Positions 2,363 to 64,000 of a stretch of 64,000 nucleotides of DNA are shown here, piece by piece; within the stretch, counting starts at the first letter, position 1; each line of letters begins with the position of its first letter. Location of the stretch: positions 62,001 to 126,000 of the forward strand of contig JAWLHK010000009.1 in assembly GCA_041690355.1 (NCBI GenBank). Direction: 5' to 3'. A program made the translations under genes and the position numbers. The DNA comes from a bacterium (GTDB lineage Bacteria; J088; JAWLBW01). The notes under the pieces are model-generated. The model ran no database searches and had not been told where the DNA came from. It saw only the letters and a program-made list of their open reading frames with translations.

Positions 2363-5300
2363 ATGCTTCACGTCGTCTATGCGAACGCCATCGAATCACT
2401 GACCGAACGCCTCCTCGAACGTCTTTACGAGGGCGGCCCGGCGGATAGTCAGACGCACGACGTGTTTCGCCCGGCGACCCTGCTCGTACCCAATCGCAAC
2501 ATGGAGGTCTACCTGCGGCAGCAGATCGCGCGCCGCCGCGGCGTTGCCGCCGGCATCGAGTGCCTGTTCCTGCGTGGCTACCTCGCGGGATTGCTCACCC
2601 GGGCGGCTCCCGACCTGTGCATTCTCGAGAAAGAAGAGCTGCGCCTGTCCATCCTGGCGCACCTCACGGGGCAGGGCCTCGAACGCGACGGACTCCACGA
2701 GTTGTCCGGTTATCTGGCCGGCGGAGCGGCAGGCCCCGAGCCGACCGAAGACGATGCGCCTGCCGTCGCGCTGCGCCGTTTTCAGCTCGCCGACAGACTG
2801 AGCGACATCTACCTCGAATACTCCTTCTCGCGGCCCGACTGGCTGCGCGCCTGGGAGCTCGGGCGCCCGGTGCTGGGAGAACACAGCGATGAAACCGTGC
2901 GCCGCACCGAAGCCTGGCAGCAGCAGTTCTGGCAACGCCTGCGCGCAGACCGCGTGTCCGGAGCAGACCGCTGGCTCCTGCTGACAGAGGCCTGGGCCGA
3001 GGCCGAGAGACACCTGCGCGGGAACCCTTCGGATCTTTTTCCGGGCGGCCTTGCGCTCGATGGTCCGCCGTTGTACGTTTTCGGCCTTTCCTACATGGCC
3101 CCCGCATTCCACGCGATCCTGCAGACACTGGGGAATCTGCGACCGGTTCACGTTTACACCCTGAACCCCTCGGCTGAATTCTGGGAAGATGCGGAATCCT
3201 TCGGCGAAGCGAACCGCCGGATGCGCCAGTGGACGCGCCGTGCGTCGAGCCGCCGCAAGCCCACCGACGACAGCGACGATCCGTTCGGACTGCTCGCCGA
3301 AGACGAGAATCCGCCGCTGCGCCTGTGGGGTCGGCCGGGAAGAGAGAACATCCGCCTTCTGAACGAAGGAACCGGCTACGAATTCGAAAGCCGCTTCCGC
3401 GATCCGGTGGCCGGGGGACCGCCGACGCTGCTGCGCCTGCTCCAGCAGGACATCCTTCTGCGCAGGCCTGAACGGCGCGAGCTGCCCCTCGGCCCGGAAG
3501 CGCGCGCAAGCCTGGAGCGGGATTCGAGCGTCCGCTTTCTGGCCTGCCCCGGCCTCGTGCGCGAAGTAGAGATCGTCGCCGACGAGATCTGGCGCCTGCT
3601 GCGCGACCCGGCCCATGCCGGCCTGCGCATGCACGACATCGCCGTGATCGTCAACGGCGCCGATCGCGATACCTACTTCACGCACATCGCCTCGACCTTC
3701 GAAGATTTTCACGGCCTGCGCTGCTCCATCGTCGACCGCCCGCTGGTGGGCGAGTCCCGCGTCGGCGAAGCGCTCGAGCTGCTTCTCGATCTGCCCCTCG
3801 GCCGGTTCGGCCGCAACGATCTTCTTCGGCTGCTCACCCACCCCGTCTTCACCGGGCGTTACCCCGACGATCCGGCCGCGCACTGGCGCGCCTGGGCCGA
3901 GCGGCTCAACGTCATCTTCGGCGCAGACGCAGCCGATCTTCAGGGAACCTATATGGCCGAGGAGGACCACGTCTCCTGGGAGCAGGCCCTGCGCCGCCTC
4001 GTGACCGGCGTCTTCGCCGCCGGCCCGGCAAGCGGCCAGGAAGAGCCCCTCGACGTGGGTTACGGGCCCCTCCTGGTCGAAGACGTGGCCGACGGCGATG
4101 TCGAGGCGGCCGCGCAGCTTCTGACCGCCGCCCGCTCGCTGATGGCCGATGCCCGCTGGGCGAAGGAACAACGGCGCACCCCCTCCGAATGGGGCGCCTG
4201 GTTCGCCGCCGTCACCTCGACCTACCTTGCCGGCGCCGACCGCAGCGATCGCGCCGTCATCTCCCGATGCGTCCAGGCGCTGCGCGAGTCGGGTGAGCGC
4301 GCCCTGCCCCCGGATGCCGACGCGCCGGTTCCCTACCGCATCGCACGCGAGCTGGCCCGCGAGGCCCTCACCGGTCTCCAGGGGCGCGGGCATTATCTTT
4401 CCGACGGGATCGTCGTCTCCTCCTTTCTCCCCATGCGCGCCATTCCCTTTCGCGCCATTTTCGTGCTCGGCCTGGGCGACGGCAGATTCCCGGCCGGCGA
4501 GCGGCGCGATCCGCTGGATCTGCGTCCGGCCTCACGCCGACCCGGCGACGTCACCCGCAGGGAACAGGATAAGTACATGTTTCTCGAGACGCTCCTTTCG
4601 GCCCGGGAGCGAATCTATCTGTCCTGGGTCTGCCGCGACGCGGCTTCGGGAGAAGAGCTGGCCCCCTCGACCGTGGTCCAGGAGCTGCTCCACGTTCTCG
4701 AAACCATGTACCTGAGTCCCGGAGAAGCGCTCCCGCCGGAGCACCGCCGGGTCAACCGGCTGACCGAGCGGCACCCCCTCGCCCGCTATGATGCCCGCTA
4801 TTTCGAACCGGATGCCGACGGCCGGGCGGCCTTAACGGCAACTCAACTTCCCGAGGCCGTGCGGGAGCGCGGGGCCGGACTGCTGCGCGAGCGCCTGAAA
4901 CAGCACCTCGGATCCGGCTCGCTCCCCCCCGCGCCGGCACGGCTGCTCGAAGCGGTGCGCGAAGGGGCGCAGGCCGATACATTCCACCGCCTCCTGGGCC
5001 TCGCGCCGCCGATCCCGCCACCGCCGGCCGAAGCGCGCGGCCGACGCGCGCTTACGTTGAATCAGTTACGGGACTTCGCCGCCTGCCCGCTCCAAGGTTC
5101 CGCCAAGATCTACCTCGGCATGCGCGACGACACCGAGCAGGACATGCTCCTTGTCGAAGACGAATGCTTCGATGCCGAGCCGCATCGGCACGCCCTGTGG
5201 CTGCAGGAGATCTTCGTGGCGGCCGGCGGCGACCTCGAGCGGGCAGCGATGGAATACGACCGCCGATACACCGCGCTCAAGCTGCGCGGCGAGCTACCAG

Positions 5301-6061: not shown

Positions 6062-9000
6062 CCGAGTCGTCTCTGCGCATCCGCAAGATTCCCCTGCTGC
6101 GCCAGGTGCGCGCCGGCGCCCGCCGCGGAAGCGTCATCGAGGCCAGTGCGGGCACGGGCAAGACGTTCACGATTGAGAACCTCCTGCTCGACCTGATCCT
6201 CGAACCCGACCCGGGGCGCGCGCTCGGTGTCGAGAACATTCTCGTCGTCACCTTCACCGAGATGGCGACCGCCGAACTACGCGCAAAGATCCGCCGGCGC
6301 ATCGAGAACCTGCTGCAGGCACGGGAGTCCGACGCCGCAGCCGACGAAGAAGCCTGGGTCATCGACGACGCGGCCCGCGCCCGCCTGCGCCAGGCGCTTT
6401 TCTCGTTCGACGCCGCCCCCATTCACACCATCCATGCCTTCTGCCAGCGAGTACTCCGGGAGAACGCCTTTCTCAACCGGCAGCTCTTCGAGCAGGAGCG
6501 TATCGACACCGAAATCGTCTTTCGGCGCACGCTGCGCTCCATGCTGCGCAGTGAGCTCCTCGCCGATGCCGAAGTCCGGCCGCTGCTCGACGCCCATCTT
6601 GCGACGCACACGGTCGAGAACCTCGAAACGCTGCTTCTGCAGGCCGCCCGCCTGCACGGCGCCTTTCGGCCGTCGCTTTCACTGCGCGAGGCCGAAGACC
6701 TCGTACGACAGGCGGCCGAAACCCTGCGTCCCGAGGCGCTCATTGCTCTTGCCGGCAGGGTCAAGGGGATTTCGCAGAAAAGGACGGAACGCAATTGCCG
6801 CCGCATCTGCGCGGGGATCGAAGCCTGGCGCCGGAGCGGCGACTACGCCGAGCTCGACCGGCAGTGGCGTGAGGTCGAACGCGATTTCAAACGGCCCGAC
6901 GAGCTTGAACCGCCCGAGGCAGAATTCCTCTCCCGATTCGATCGCTGGTGCGCCGAGGCTCCCGTCCCCGCGTCCATGCTCGCACAGGCTCTTCTCCCGC
7001 GCATCGAGGCGCGCATGGACGCCGATAAACAGCGCGAGGGGGTCTACGATTTCCAGGACATGCTCTCGCGGGTGCGCAGCAGCCTGTACGACAGCCCGCT
7101 CGCCGCGCAGCTGACTGCCGCGTTGCGCACGCAGTACGCCTGTGCGATCGTCGACGAGTTCCAGGACACCGACGGGATCCAGTGGGACATCTTCCGCCGC
7201 ATCTTTCTCGAGGGCGAACAGACGCGTCTGTTCGTCGTCGGCGACCCCAAGCAGGCCATCTACGGCTTTCGCGGGGCCGACGTCTTTACCTACCGCGAAG
7301 CCGTGAAGGTGATGCTGGCCGGCCGCGAGCCCGAGCGGCTCGCGCTCAACTTCCGCTCCACGCCGGCGATGGTCTGCGCCTACAACGATCTGCTCACGCG
7401 TCCGGTACAGGTTCCCGGGCGCAGAAAGAACGAGATCGTCGAACGGGCCTTCTTCACGGGGGCCAATGAATATGCGCATCCCGTCGGCGCGGGCCGGACC
7501 GGTCTCACGCTGGCTGACGGCGACGGTGCGCCGCTCGAGTCTCCCATTCGCATCCTTCACGATCCGGAAACCGAGACGAACGCCGTGCCCCTGGGCAGGA
7601 TTCAAATCGCGTGCGGCGAAGCGATCGCCGCCGAGATTCAGGGCCTGCTGGGACCCCGGCCCGTCTTTCTCGCCGAAGGAGACAGACGCCGACGCGTCGA
7701 AGCCCGAGACATCTTCGTGCTCACCGAAACGAACGGGCAGCTGGTCACGATGGCCGCCATTCTGCGCGAGGCGGGCATACCGTATGCCTATTACAAGCAG
7801 GAGGGCCTGTTTCAGACCCCCGAGGCCACCGACGTGCGCGACCTGCTGCGCGCCATCGAACGCCCCGACCGCACCGACCTGCGCCTGCGGGCATGGGGGG
7901 GACCCTTCTTCGAGGTTCCCTGGGGCGACCTGGACGGGTGCCGCGCGCTCGCCGACAGCCATCCGCTTTTCCAGCAGCTGCTCGCGTGGAGGTCGCTCGC
8001 CGTTGCCGAAGACTACGGCCGCCTGTTCCGCCGCATACTCTCCGACAGCCACCTGACGCGCCGGGAGCTCTTTCTCAAGGATTCCGAACGCGATCTGACG
8101 AATTACCAGCACTTGTTCGAAGTCCTGCTCGAAACGGCCATGCGGCGCCGGTGCTCACTGGCCGAGCTGACGCGGCTGCTCGACAACTGGATACAGGACG
8201 CCGACAAGCCCGACGGCGAGTCGGCGGGCATGCAGCGCATCGAAACCGAGAAGGCAGCCGTCAAGCTTATGACGATGCACCGCAGCAAGGGGCTCGAGGC
8301 CGCCGTCGTCTTCGTCTACGCGCTCGGCGGCGGCATCGGCGCCCGCGAAGTCAACGTATTTCACGACGATGACGGCAAGCGCTGCCTCTACGTGGGGTCG
8401 GGCGGACCGTGGAAAGACCGAATCGACCGCGAGCGTGACGAAGAGCGCCAGCGCGTGCTTTACGTCGCCGTCACCCGGGCGCAGGGGCTTCTCTATCTGC
8501 CGCTCGTCGGCAGCCGAAGCGCCGGGCGCCTCCACGGCACCTACCGGCAGTTGAATACGCGACTGCTCGACCTTCGCCACGCAGACGCGTTGACGGCCCC
8601 GCATTACGAGGTCGTTCCCTTTGCAGAACCGCGGCGCCTGACCGCAGCCGACATCGACGCCGACCTGCTTGCGGGCTGGAATCCGGCGGCCGAACCACTC
8701 CCGGAGCCCGAGCCCCCCGAGGTCTTTCATGCTGCGCTGCGCGAACGCAGGGCCTGGACGACGAGCTCCTACTCGCGCATGAAGAAGCAGGAAAAGCATC
8801 CCGGCTTCGACGACGACGAAAAGCTCGAGGCGGCGGCAGCGGCCCCGGCTGAAGGGCTGCGCGGCGGAACCGATACCGGCCTGTTCATTCACGACCTGCT
8901 CGAGCACGTCGACCCGGCTTCCTTCACGCTCCCGGAGACCGAGTGGGGGGCCGAGCCCTCCGTCGACCGGCTGTTCGGGCGGCTCATGGCGCGGCACGGC

Positions 9001-60357: not shown

Positions 60358-61557
60358 TCAGCGAAAACGGACGCGCAGGAATTTGCGCTTGCCCGCGCGG
60401 AGCAGCGCCTCGTCGGCCGCGCCGAAGTCATGGTTCTCGCCGGCGGCCTTCACGCCGTCGATCTGCAGCCCCCCCTGCTGAACGAGCCGTTTGCCTTCGC
60501 TGGAGCCGCCCACCAGGCCCAGTTCGTGAAGGAACTTCGGCAGCCAGACGGGCCCTGCGGGGCGGGGCACTTCCCGCTCGGGGACGTCTTCGGGAATCTC
60601 GCCCTTGCTGAAGACCTTGCGGAAATTTTCGAGCGCCGCGTTGGCCGCGTCGGCACCGTGAAACCGGGCGGCCAGCTCGACGGCGAGCGCCTCCTTGGCC
60701 TCCTTCGGGTGCACGCGGCCTTCGCGAACCGCCTCGTACCGCTCGGGATCGACGTCACTCAACAGCTCGTAATAGCGCATCATGAGCGTGTCGCTGGTGC
60801 TCATGACCTTGCCGAAAATCTCGGCCGCCGGCTCGGTGATGCCGATGTAGTTGCCCAGGCTCTTGCTCATCTTCTGCACGCCGTCAAGCCCTTCGAGCAG
60901 CGGCACCGTCATGACGCACTGGGGGGCCTGGCCCGCTTCTTTCTGAAGTTCGCGGCCGACGATCAGATTGAACTTCTGGTCGGTGCCGCCGACCTCGACG
61001 TCGGCCTTGAGCGCGACCGAATCGTATCCCTGCACGAGCGGGTAAAGAAATTCGTGGATGGCGATGGGCCGGTGTTCGGCATAGCGTTTGGAAAAGTCGT
61101 CGCGCTCGAGCATGCGCGCCACGGTATACTTCGCGGCGAGGCGCACGACGTCGTCGGCCTTCATGGCGCCCATCCACTCGCTGTTGAAGCGGACCTCGGT
61201 CTTCTCCGGGTCGAGTATCTTGAAGACCTGGCTCTTGTACGTTTCGGCGTTGCGGCGGATCTCGTCTTCGCTGAGCGGCTTGCGGGTTTCGTTCTTGCCC
61301 GTCGGGTCGCCGATGAGGGCCGTGAAATCGCCGATGAGAAAGATGACCTGATGCCCCAGCTGCTGAAACTGGCGCAGTTTCTGGATCAGCACGGTATGGC
61401 CCACGTGCAGGTCGGGGGCCGTCGGGTCAAACCCGGCTTTCACGCGCAGGGGACGGCCGCTGCGCAGCTTTTCGAGGAAATCTTCCTGTGGAAGGACCTC
61501 GACGATGCCGCGCGAAAGAATTTTCCACTGTTCTTCGGCGCTGGGGAGCTTGATCAT
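60358..61557 (-). CDS. tyrS: Tyrosine--tRNA ligase
   Basis: [35 protein letters not shown]-terminal S4 domain. Confidence 0.97.
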
Positions 61558-62339
61558 TGCGGTTGGTACGGTTCCTGAATGCGGCGGATGGCGGTGGCGC
61601 GCCCGTCGGCTTCGTCGACGTCGACCAGAATTCCCTGTAACTTCACGTTCCCCTTGGCCACCTCGAGGCGCGTCGGCATGCCGGTTAGAAAGCGCTCGAT
61701 GGCCAGCTCCTTCTTCATCCCGATGACCGAATCGAGGGGGCCGGTGAGGCCGGCGTCGGTGATGAAGGCCGTGCCGCCGGGAAGGATGCGTTCGTCGGCG
61801 GTCTGCACATGGGTGTGCGTGCCGAAGACGATGGAGCAGTGGCCGTTCAGGTGCCAGCCGATGGCCTGCTTCTCGCTCGAGGCCTCGCCGTGAAAGTCGA
61901 CGATGAGCACGCGCGTATCGCGGCGCATCTCGCGCAGCAGATCCATGGCCATCGTGAACGGGTTCTCGAGGGGATACATGAAGACGCGCCCCATGAGGTT
62001 GGCGACGCCGACTTCGACGCCCCCCTTGCTGCGGACCACCACATGCCCCTTGCCGGGCGCGTTCGAGTAGTTGGCCGGGCGCAGCAGGCGCGGTTCAGAC
62101 TCGATATAGGAGATGATGTCCTTCTTGTCCCAGGAGTGATTGCCTCCGGTGACGACGTCGGCGCCGGCGGCAAAGAGCTCCTTGCAGGTCTCTTCGGTGA
62201 ACCCGAACCCCCCCGCGACGTTTTCGCCGTTGACGACCGTGAAATCGACCCTCTCCCGCTGGATGAGACCCGGTAGCAAATGGCGCACGGCCTTGCGGCC
62301 GGGTTCGCCCATGACGTCGCCGATACAGAGAATACGCAT
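61554..62339 (-). CDS. ymdB: YmdB/TIGR00282 metallophosphoesterase
   Basis: [46 protein letters not shown] overlap with tyrS. Confidence 0.93.
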
Positions 62340-62441
62340 AGAACCATTCAGAGTAACGGTGGCGGCAGCAGGTTTCAAGCGGAATGCGGGCTGGGATAAG
62401 GGCGGATTCCGTCCGGCCCGGGCCCCGTTGCAGTCAGAGGT

Positions 62442-63347
62442 TCAGGCGGCCGTGCGCCGCTGCCGGTCGAGCCGCTCGAGCAGGAAATCGACAAGATGGC
62501 CCGCCACGTCGAAACCGGTCGCCTTTTCGAGACCGAGAAAACTCGGGGCGCCGTTCACCTCGAGCACCTTCCATCCATTGGCGCCGCGAATCAGATCGAC
62601 CCCCGAATAGTCGAGGCCGACGGCCCGGACGGCCGAGACAGCAAGGTTCTCCATCTCGGCGGTGAGCTCGACCGGATCGGGGATGCCCCCCTGCGCCAGG
62701 TTTGTGCGCCATTCGCCTTCGACGGCCATGCGCGTGCAGCCGGCCACGGTGCGGTCTCCGACGACGAAAGCCCGCACGTCACGCCCGCCGCCCGGCACGA
62801 ACTCCTGCAGCAGTACGGCGCCGTACTCGACCAGGAAATCGGCGATGACCGGGCGTATGCCGGGTGAATCCTTCCAAAGCTCGACCCCCTCGCCCATCGA
62901 GCCGTACAGCGGCTTCGCCACGACCATGCCCTCGCGCCGCACGATCTCTTCGGCGCTCTGCAGATCGGCCACGACCCAGGTCGCCGGCGTAGGCACCCGG
63001 GCGCAGCGCAGCCGGGCCGCCACCGCCAGCTTGTCAAGCGCGAGCAGCATGGGCTCGACCCGGTTGATGACGACACACAGCAGCGTCTGCCACTCGCGCA
63101 GCACCTGGATCTGATAGTCGAAAGGGATGCGCGGATTGACGCGCCGGAAGAGGGCGGCCTCGAAGGGGGGGAGGGCAACCCCGCGGCGCCGGATGCGAAT
63201 CCGCTCGCGTTGCAGGTCGACCCCGAGCTCGCCGGCGTCGACGACCTCCATGCGTGCCCGTCCGCGCGCGGCCGCGAGCAGGCGCTCGGTGTGGCGGGAT
63301 GCGCCGCTGCTCACGAGAGCAATCCAGGGATGGGTTGCAGCAGGCAT
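62442..63347 (-). CDS. RimK-family ATP-grasp alpha-L-glutamate ligase-like protein
   Basis: DKL, VAKPLYGSMGEGV, LLQEFV, RDVRAFVVG, WRTNLAQGG, GVDLI, LEVNGAP. Confidence 0.9.
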   Translation of the reverse strand: MPAATHPWIALVSSGASRHTERLLAAARGRARMEVVDAGELGVDLQRERIRIRRRGVALPPFEAALFRRVNPRIPFDYQIQVLREWQTLLCVVINRVEPMLLALDKLAVAARLRCARVPTPATWVVADLQSAEEIVRREGMVVAKPLYGSMGEGVELWKDSPGIRPVIADFLVEYGAVLLQEFVPGGGRDVRAFVVGDRTVAGCTRMAVEGEWRTNLAQGGIPDPVELTAEMENLAVSAVRAVGLDYSGVDLIRGANGWKVLEVNGAPSFLGLEKATGFDVAGHLVDFLLERLDRQRRTAA

Positions 63348-63366
63348 GGAATCTCGGTCAGAGGTG

Positions 63367-63401
63367 AAAAGGCCGGAGGCCGGACGAATCCGGCCTCCGG
63401 C
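63367..63401 (-). terminator. Hairpin, likely terminator or attenuator, after the KGG peptide genes
   Basis: Perfect 13-bp stem (63372-63384 / 63389-63401), TTCG loop on the minus strand, followed by CTTTT. Confidence 0.65.
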
Positions 63402-63409
63402 AGTACGCC

Positions 63410-63577
63410 TTACTCTTCGCTCATGCGCTTGCCGCGCTCGATGAGTTCGGCAACCTTGCGGCCACCCTTGCGGCCGATTTCTTCGAAGTGCTCGTGGCTG
63501 TACTTGCTGGCGACGGTTTCGCCGCCCTTGCGACCAGCTTCCTGAACCGTCATGGCTCCTTTGCTAGACTTCGCCAT
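63410..63577 (-). CDS. Small GsiB/Em (KGG/LEA_5-like) stress peptide A, 55 aa
   Basis: Manually translated, below the ORF-track cutoff: MAKSSKGAMTVQEAGRKGGETVASKYSHEHFEEIGRKGGRKVAELIERGKRMSEE; AAGGAG RBS. Confidence 0.9.
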   Translation of the reverse strand: MAKSSKGAMTVQEAGRKGGETVASKYSHEHFEEIGRKGGRKVAELIERGKRMSEE

Positions 63578-63650
63578 TTCTGTCTCCTTCTGGTTGTCTC
63601 CCGTTCACAGTCCGGCCGCGGCTTGCGCCCCGGCCGCTTCTGGGCATTTT

Positions 63651-63857
63651 TTACTTGGCGCTCGCGCGCTTGCCCCGTTCAATAAGCTCGGCGACCTTGC
63701 GACCGCCCTTGCGGCCGATTTCTTCAAAGTGTTCGTGGCCGTACTTCTGGGCAACGATGCGGCCGCCCTTGACGCCCCCGCGGCGTCCCGCTTCGGCCAC
63801 CGTCATCTGCCCCTTGCTTTCGGTCGTCGTTGTCGTCGTTCGCGTCGACTTCGCCAT
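63651..63857 (-). CDS. Small GsiB/Em (KGG/LEA_5-like) stress peptide B, 68 aa
   Basis: MAKSTRTTTTTTESKGQMTVAEAGRRGG...YGHEHFEEIGRKGGRKVAELIERGKRASAK; GGAGG RBS. Confidence 0.9.
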   Translation of the reverse strand: MAKSTRTTTTTTESKGQMTVAEAGRRGGVKGGRIVAQKYGHEHFEEIGRKGGRKVAELIERGKRASAK

Positions 63858-63887
63858 AGCATCCCTCCAGTTCACATTCACAGTTGA

Positions 63888-64000
63888 TTAGCGCGAAGAC
63901 TGCTTGCCCTTCTCAATGAGATCGGCAACCTTTCTCCCGCCTTTGCGGCCGATTTCCTCGAAATGCTCATGACCATATTTTCCGGCGACCGATTCGCCAC
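63888..64000 (-). CDS. Small GsiB/Em (KGG/LEA_5-like) stress peptide C, 5' end outside the window
   Basis: Manually translated: ...GESVAGKYGHEHFEEIGRKGGRKVADLIEKGKQSSR*. Confidence 0.85.
   Translation of the reverse strand, partial: GESVAGKYGHEHFEEIGRKGGRKVADLIEKGKQSSR

Follow-up and report, generated by a model that had tools for sequence, protein, structure and literature searches.

A RimK-family ATP-grasp ligase conserved beside genes for KGG hydrophilins, a candidate enzyme for the modification of bacterial stress proteins

The ligases RimK, LysX/ArgX, MptN and CofF share a common chemistry in which the acyl-phosphate of a carboxylate is attacked by the amino group of glutamate or a similar amino acid. 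RimK, the founding member of the family, acts on ribosomal protein S6, and LysX/ArgX joins an amino acid to a carboxylate of the small (∼54 aa) carrier protein LysW, which is defined by its C-terminal Glu. Few stress and desiccation proteins of bacteria and seeds are induced as strongly as the hydrophilins of the KGG, GsiB and Em types. Here we describe a bacterial locus at which genes of these two types lie side by side. It is situated at one end of the 64,000-nucleotide stretch of DNA that was analyzed (the window, corresponding to positions 62001–126000 of contig 9 of genome G000) and contains a gene for a RimK-family ATP-grasp ligase together with three genes for KGG hydrophilins, all on the minus strand. 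A functional link between the hydrophilins and the ligase is very likely, because the pairing is conserved, extends across a whole clade of ligases and is always on the same strand.

The ligase gene (62442–63347, minus strand) is complete and codes for 301 residues. Upstream of it are KGG-A (63410–63577, minus), encoding a 55-residue hydrophilin that adjoins the ligase and has the C-terminus MSEE; KGG-B (63651–63857, minus), encoding a 68-residue hydrophilin with the C-terminus ASAK; and KGG-C (63888–∼64110, minus), a two-repeat hydrophilin gene that is cut by the end of the window at 64000, leaving the C-terminal 36–37 residues inside, and whose genome copy codes for 73 residues (L014 5892–6110). 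The length of KGG-B is counted from an ATG; the 76-residue form in the list of open reading frames (ORFs) begins at an upstream GTG. Good ribosome-binding sites precede the ATG codons of KGG-A (GGAGA) and KGG-B (GGAGGGA), and that of the ligase is weak. A GC-rich hairpin (63372–63401, minus) occupies the interval between KGG-A and the ligase. The initial annotation of this DNA had described co-oriented, similar small genes upstream of a complete RimK-type gene, an MSEE ending on the peptide next to the ligase and a hairpin separating the two, and all of these elements are present. It had also remarked that two of the small genes were missing from the ORF track, which fits an ORF list with a 60-residue minimum in the case of KGG-A and one without open ends in the case of KGG-C. 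Inspection of the genome copy beyond the window end shows that the number of KGG genes is three and that they do not form part of a longer array.

All three hydrophilins have in common the sequence HEHFEEIGRKGGRKVA(E/D)LIE(R/K)GK. KGG-A (26.8 bits) and full-length KGG-C (34.9 bits) pass the PF10685 cut-off of 20.4 bits; KGG-B by itself falls below every Pfam cut-off, and it is 84% identical to KGG-A across residues 4–53. The cut-off of 40 bits for PF00477 (LEA_5, a late embryogenesis abundant, or LEA, family) is reached by none of them (21.7, 16.9 and 31.2 bits for KGG-A, KGG-B and KGG-C respectively). The Pfam KGG model, with 22 positions, is too short for a search of the window genome and gives no match there, although the proteins pass when scanned individually with hmmscan.

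Ligase homologues with their flanking sequences were gathered from three sources, a 61-genome sample, metagenome contigs and species-representative genomes. KGG ORFs are present at 44 of the 179 loci; a peptide profile and a motif search each pick out the same 44, without any disagreement. At the window locus the three KGG genes lie within 62 nt upstream of the ligase on the same strand, and at the 43 other linked loci the nearest KGG ORF is invariably on the strand of the ligase with a gap of 0–226 nt. In 40 of these 43 the KGG genes are downstream of the ligase, and in three (G001, L150 and L153) they are upstream; L140 is counted with the former, its apparent upstream placement being due to a long overlapping frame, with the gene starting at 4385, just inside the ligase end. 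In Anaeromyxobacter oryzae the stop codon of the ligase overlaps the start of the first KGG gene (ATGGCTGA), and at Polyangia loci the overlap of the two genes extends to as much as 19 nt, stop codon included. When the best 80 species-representative loci are ranked by similarity to an Anaeromyxobacter ligase, the 33 with KGG genes take ranks 1–32 and 35, and in 39 of the 47 that lack them the ligase is flanked on either side by 1 kb or more.

The linked loci are found in Myxococcota, Armatimonadota, Actinomycetota, the sparsely sampled lineage of the window and the lineage of G029 and G197, and they include two cultured carriers, A. oryzae Red232 and A. oryzisoli SG63. The unlinked ones are archaeal (Bathyarchaeota and others) or come from Acidobacteriota, Azohydromonas, Paraburkholderia and a single Patescibacteria record. 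The closest orthologues of the window ligase are 54–70% identical to it (P0002–P0012), and the adjacency persists at ligase identities of only 28–40%. In G001, a relative from the same family with a ligase 63% identical to that of the window, the order TatD / KGG / KGG / ligase is retained, and orthologues of both KGG-A (94% identical) and KGG-B are present. Only the ligase–KGG pair is conserved, the flanking genes varying by lineage. Recurrence of the neighborhood across genomes had been set beforehand as a test of the link, and it is seen at all 44 loci of one ligase clade, in several phyla.

The linked ligases form a group of their own. We constructed a mixture-model maximum-likelihood tree of 55 ligases, comprising 24 linked enzymes (of 44) and 28 that are unlinked (of 135), with near-duplicates and partial sequences left out, and the three closest metagenomic relatives of the window ligase, whose genomic context is not known. 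The 24 linked enzymes and the three window relatives are separated from the 28 unlinked ones with an ultrafast bootstrap (UFBoot) value of 97 and an SH-like approximate likelihood ratio (SH-aLRT) value of 99, in a tree that is unrooted and for which no root was inferred. On the unlinked side are E. coli RimK, a second ligase paralogue of the window genome, and MptN-like groups from archaea and bacteria, which pass no equivalog cut-off. In a first FastTree of 92 rows, since superseded by the mixture-model trees, the window clade stood next to canonical RimK with a very short branch, and there were warnings of long-branch joins.

The phyletic pattern was examined in 301 sampled genomes, in most cases one or two from each family. 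Ligase scores at the level of the clade occur in four of them (∼396 bits in G000, G029 and G197, and 263 bits for a truncated copy in G001); the next scores are 243 and 236 bits, with the remainder at 220 bits or less. The KGG profile matches eight of the 301 genomes, consisting of the four ligase carriers, in each of which the KGG genes are adjacent, together with G163, G210, G298 and a weak single match in G146. There is thus no ligase-clade genome in the sample without KGG genes (0 of 4). This dependence is one-sided, in that the ligase is never found without an adjacent KGG gene while KGG genes do exist where the ligase does not, as would be expected if the ligase were an accessory enzyme and the hydrophilin its substrate or partner; because the positives amount to only two lineages, the sample supports the pattern rather than proving it.

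Comparison with the named families shows that the window ligase belongs to the RimK family at large. It matches PF08443 at 7.1e-31 (107.7 bits, cut-off 21) and TIGR00768 at 173.9 bits, above the family cut-off of 143.4, and its closest solved structures are those of Pseudomonas RimK (7QYR, 3.7e-34) and E. coli RimK (4IWX, 6.8e-33). It falls short of each of the equivalog cut-offs, scoring 188.7 bits against 350 for MptN (NF040720), 144.9 against 275.6 for LysX (TIGR02144), 116.9 against 331 for the S6-Glu ligase (NF007764) and 55.2 against 300 for CofF (TIGR04443), and it is likewise below the graspetide maturase models TIGR04187 (43.3 against 350) and TIGR04185 (MvdC; 18.7 against 425). MptN gives the top NCBIfam score, and several of the relatives carry that name in public records; however, the unlinked archaeal, acidobacterial and Burkholderiales relatives that score 180–292 bits on the MptN model lie on the opposite side of the tree, and no cofactor genes were found in the flanks of the module. 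The resemblance to the LysX/ArgX–LysW system lies in the pairing of a RimK-family ligase with a small protein, and the solved relatives 1UC8 and 3VPD match at ∼1e-21, but the KGG proteins have no conserved counterpart to the C-terminal Glu of LysW, and the flanks contain no lysine or arginine biosynthesis genes that we could find.

The likeness to RimK and S6 is closer. The enzyme family, the fold and the catalytic residues are common to the window ligase and RimK, and both systems would consist of an ATP-grasp ligase and a ribosomally made protein acceptor with a link to stress adaptation. They differ in that the window ligase is in a separate, well supported clade and does not retain R8, H215 and R216 of the poly-Glu groove, that the putative KGG substrate is basic and lacks a conserved acidic C-terminus, and that the gene for this substrate is adjacent and often present in several copies, whereas rpsF is not beside rimK. 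The window genome, moreover, carries its second ligase paralogue on contig 32. This is 36% identical to the window enzyme, reaches 285 bits with the S6-ligase model and clusters with E. coli RimK (clade support 100), and G001 also has a separate paralogue of this kind; the presence of a canonical RimK paralogue argues that the KGG-linked enzyme has a job of its own. The S6 protein of the window genome (contig 20, 31798–32300; L200 1495–2007) is extended at its C-terminus by a long low-complexity stretch, in which a run of about 13 Arg-Asp dipeptides precedes an acidic tail ending in EESADEGKGE. Given the second RimK-like paralogue and an S6 whose acidic tail ends in Glu, a canonical RimK/S6 pair appears to exist already in this genome, with the window enzyme as an extra.

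An alignment mapped to the numbering of E. coli RimK allows the active sites of 27 KGG-linked clade members and eight canonical RimKs to be compared. The nucleotide-binding and catalytic residues K141, R189, E260, N262 and R64 are present in all 27 clade members and N213 in 26 of them, the equivalents in the window ligase being K145, R192, E263, N265, R68 and N216. In the account of RimK in PMC10092738 (section 3.3), the bound poly-Glu chain of the Pseudomonas enzyme touches S7, R8, S14, R64, S68, R189 and N262, and the site of the E. coli enzyme is lined by H215, R216 and R211. Several of these positions are changed in the KGG-linked clade, in which R8 is replaced by A, S or G (Arg in 0 of 27), S14 is mostly His, S68 is mostly Gly, and H215 and R216 are not retained; in the window ligase R8, H215 and R216 correspond to S, A and Q respectively. 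R8, H215 and R216 are each retained in six to eight of the eight canonical RimKs. Only three columns are specific to the clade (at least 85% within it and at most 20% elsewhere), namely an Asp at E. coli L12, D77 at F71 and Q79 at G73, and all three fall in the two acceptor loops that carry R8/S14 and R64/S68. Since the catalytic residues are kept and the poly-Glu contacts are changed, the enzyme looks to be active with a re-tuned acceptor site, its basic groove probably having become a more acidic one, and an acceptor site that has lost Arg and His and gained Asp would suit the basic KGG proteins. Co-folding of the ligase (52-row alignment) with KGG-A (41 sequences), ATP and two Mg gave a value of 0.01 against a mark of 0.32, and speaks neither for nor against binding.

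The KGG proteins linked to ligases are 45–136 residues long, with one to six KGG ORFs per locus, and share a head (MTVxEAGxKGG), a FYEEIGxKGG repeat and a tail helix (KVxxLIExGK). They are predominantly basic, the 130 distinct sequences having a median net charge of +5, a median isoelectric point of 9.55 and a positive net charge in 85% of cases, and the tail module always has a net charge of +1 or more. Among the single-repeat peptides the sole invariant acidic residue is the second Glu of FYEEIG; its first Glu, and the one in EAG, are nearly invariant. The initial annotation had pointed to an acidic, S6-like -SEE terminus, a possible recognition cue for the ligase, and such a cue is not supported by the comparison. 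The last residue is Asp or Glu in 11 of the 43 ligase-proximal proteins (9 of 88 distal ones), and the last two residues are both acidic in only two (the window and L144; 1 of 88 distal), such that the terminal -EE reading is not a general rule; in the only same-family relative, G001, the sequence -KRLGG stands where the window has -KRMSEE, and the RimK residues that hold a poly-Glu tail are not retained in the clade. An acidic residue in the tail is commoner in proximal (25 of 43) than in distal (25 of 88) KGG proteins, these rows not being independent.

Further hydrophilin genes of the window genome are located on contig 26 (46940–50470; L015 3939–7467). There are three of them, with up to six copies of a plant-Em-like repeat, LGHEGYEELGRKGGEARAKE; two pass the LEA_5 cut-off (109.7 and 123.9 bits against 40), all end in the KVxxLIExGK tail, and no ligase is nearby.

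The hairpin between KGG-A and the ligase has a perfect GC-rich stem of 13 bp, with a folding energy of −37.9 kcal/mol for a 76-nt stretch (z = −5.07); none of 200 shuffled sequences was as stable. Four U only follow the stem, in a short tract (CUUUUC), and the structure is terminator-like or attenuator-like. A terminator scan with a rule of five T found none on the minus strand of the locus, and a sigma-70 promoter scan over the locus found no sites. In G001 a different hairpin of unrelated sequence, followed by six U, lies at the same place between peptide and ligase. Because hairpins separate the peptides from the ligase in both genomes, the ligase may not be co-transcribed with the peptides in the family of the window, and the caveat that the initial annotation attached to their linkage stands. 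When the upstream regions of the KGG genes were aligned between G000 and G001, no clear conserved block emerged.

How might the two components act together? The pairing, the chemistry shared by the family and the re-tuned acceptor loops combine to make direct covalent modification of the hydrophilins by the ligase the best single explanation, and one to which we would give roughly an even chance. In this proposal KGG hydrophilins resembling group-1 LEA proteins and a dedicated RimK-family ligase would form a two-part stress module. The ligase would activate a carboxylate of a hydrophilin as an acyl-phosphate, and the α-amino group of a free amino acid, most probably L-glutamate, would be joined to it; the addition of one or more acidic residues would alter the charge and water binding of these basic, disordered proteins under stress. 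Recognition would be through the conserved body of the protein, that is its head (MTVxEAGxKGG), its repeat (FYEEIGxKGG) or its tail helix (KVxxLIExGK), and not through a terminal Glu-Glu. The hydrophilin as substrate, the amino acid added and the site are all inferred.

The tubulin tyrosine ligase-like glutamylases of eukaryotes, which are ATP-grasp enzymes that add Glu chains to the Glu side chains of proteins, offer a possible model by analogy if the invariant Glu of FYEEIG is the site. They belong to a different ATP-grasp family from the window ligase, and we know of no side-chain glutamylation by bacterial RimK-type enzymes. The broader proposition, that the LEA-like hydrophilins of bacteria have a dedicated enzyme that adds peptides to them non-ribosomally and that tails or branches of Glu (or another amino acid) would switch their charge and water-holding after translation, is put forward tentatively, as one that falls a little short of an even chance.

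A number of observations weigh against covalent modification. KGG genes of the same modular type occur in G163, G210 and G298 with no clade-level ligase match in the genome; their loci (L201; L202; L203 and L204) have the same head, repeat and tail, and no ligase is present within the 6.8-kb contig or within 5 kb. The window genome itself has its three contig 26 KGG/LEA_5 genes far from any ligase. Because KGG genes are found in this way without the ligase, the hydrophilins do not need the enzyme. The proteins of G163, G210 and G298 could serve as natural 'unmodified' comparators. The terminator-like hairpin lies between peptides and ligase in the window's own family. The C-termini of the proximal KGG proteins are not conserved, with R, E, K, D, S, G and others as the last residue, and a C-terminal acceptor in the style of RimK therefore has no conserved sequence cue. 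The linked loci are not all independent, since there are many Anaeromyxobacter relatives, and L032–L036 and several Armatimonadota loci share synteny. Finally, no fusion of ligase and KGG was seen among the 120 near-length matches listed, none of which has PF10685; a profile search of longer proteins (596–2000 aa) gave four matches fused to CitG-like or peptidase M20 domains and none fused to KGG.

Several of these same observations favor the main rival explanation, in which ligase and hydrophilins are co-regulated partners with no covalent chemistry between them, and the ligase makes free poly-α-glutamate, a short acidic peptide or an acidic compatible solute beside the hydrophilins during osmotic or desiccation stress. 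The genes would then remain neighbors solely because both products are required at once. Mammalian RimK-like enzymes make small acidic peptides. The occurrence of KGG genes without the ligase, the absence of a conserved acceptor terminus and the hairpin of the window's family all fit a free product, as does a stress regulon suggested by the RsbW-like kinase and STAS protein that lie beside the module in some lineages. RimK makes free poly-α-glutamate in vitro, according to PMC10375531. A solute-making enzyme should nonetheless sometimes lack KGG neighbors, and here all 44 clade loci have them, adjacent and on the same strand; the start-stop overlap of ligase and KGG genes in Myxococcota also speaks against a free product, and the clade-specific residues sit in the very loops that hold the macromolecular acceptor in RimK. 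On balance we regard a free product as rather unlikely.

It is also conceivable that the ligase modifies another protein, either S6 or some other protein with an acidic tail, its proximity to the KGG genes reflecting a shared stress regulon. The founding member of the family acts on S6, and the S6 of the window genome does have a long acidic tail, but G000 and G001 each carry a paralogue that groups with RimK and reaches 285 bits with the S6-ligase model, where the window enzyme has 117, and the residues that bind poly-Glu are lost in the KGG-linked clade. Because this explanation also leaves the strict adjacency unaccounted for, we consider it improbable. A graspetide-like maturation, in which side chains within the KGG peptides would be joined by ester or amide bonds (−18 Da) in the manner of microviridins, is suggested by the arrangement of several small precursor-like genes beside an ATP-grasp enzyme with a leaky hairpin between, as in many loci for peptides that are made on the ribosome and modified after translation (RiPPs), and by the invariant Lys and Glu of the KGG repeat. 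It is very improbable, however, given that the ligase sits within the RimK family in the tree and scores 174 bits on the rimK_fam model compared to 43 on TIGR04187 (cut-off 350) and 18.7 on MvdC, that the KGG proteins are repeat proteins of 45–136 residues from a known hydrophilin family in which no leader and core layout was recognized, and that no protease or exporter is conserved beside their genes. Chance adjacency of unrelated genes, retained by inertia in a few close relatives, can be set aside almost entirely; the order TatD / KGG / KGG / ligase within the family of the window would by itself be weak evidence of linkage, but the adjacency extends to ligases only 28–40% identical to that of the window, in three named phyla and further lineages, with the gene order reversed and the flanks unrelated between lineages.

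The variation in flanking genes is considerable. At the window locus the order from upstream to downstream is TatD, KGG-C, KGG-B, KGG-A, hairpin, ligase, a YmdB-type phosphoesterase and a tRNA synthetase, with the flanks thus formed by TatD and YmdB. The TatD gene (PF01026 at 285 bits) is outside the window and is separated from KGG-C by ∼490 nt of non-coding DNA. The YmdB-type gene (61554–62339, minus strand; 351 bits) is 3′ of the ligase and is followed on the same strand by a class I (W and Y) tRNA synthetase gene, read as TyrS, which it overlaps by 4 nt at 61554–61557 (stretch 60358–62378, minus). One Anaeromyxobacteraceae contig (L127) also has a class I W/Y tRNA synthetase fragment at a distance of ∼2 kb from the module; the appearance of such a gene near the module in both places is probably a coincidence.

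Elsewhere, Anaeromyxobacter has GlnD and a response regulator beside the module; one Armatimonadota-like group has MarC, a shikimate-dehydrogenase-like gene and the gene of an RsbW-like kinase; the Actinomycetota neighbors are DUF72, TPR and STAS genes, and Polyangia have Memo. The RsbW-like kinase, of the HATPase_c_2 type (L032–L034, ∼6200–7000, minus strand), and a STAS-domain protein (L141 6883–7344) adjoin the module, and these partner-switching regulators hint at control by an alternative sigma factor. In one Actinomycetota locus a second, unrelated ATP-grasp gene of the CPSase_L_D2 / ATP-grasp_3 type (L146 6773–7861, minus) comes right after a six-gene KGG array.

A literature search, whose coverage did not extend to the survey of ATP-grasp neighborhoods by Iyer et al. 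(2009), brought up no paper in which RimK or ATP-grasp enzymes are connected with KGG, GsiB or hydrophilin proteins. The co-mentions in PMC13156569 and PMC7660261 are in unrelated passages, and PMC9262955, which deals with the KGG protein PA2146, mentions neither a ligase nor a modification. The closest described relatives of the small proteins are GsiB, YciG and plant Em, which KGG-A and KGG-C resemble in carrying the KGG motif (PF10685) and in their likeness to LEA_5, and the literature searched describes neither an enzyme partner nor a post-translational modification for that class. The window contributes to this picture a lineage with a reversed gene order and a hairpin between the genes, a supported ligase clade, the comparison of acceptor sites, the one-sided phyletic pattern and the failure of the C-terminal EE as a cue.

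A ligase clade never seen without KGG genes provides a direct experimental handle, since one enzyme can be removed or added and the mass of one small protein followed, and the existence of the cultured carriers A. oryzae Red232 and A. oryzisoli SG63 makes the system practical to study. If modification of the hydrophilins by the ligase is borne out, it would be the first modification written by an enzyme to be described in the KGG / group-1 LEA class and would add a second class of natural protein substrates for the RimK family, widening the family beyond S6, amino-group carrier proteins and cofactors. It would also exemplify a re-tuning of the acceptor site of such a ligase, away from an acidic tail and towards a protein that is basic and disordered.

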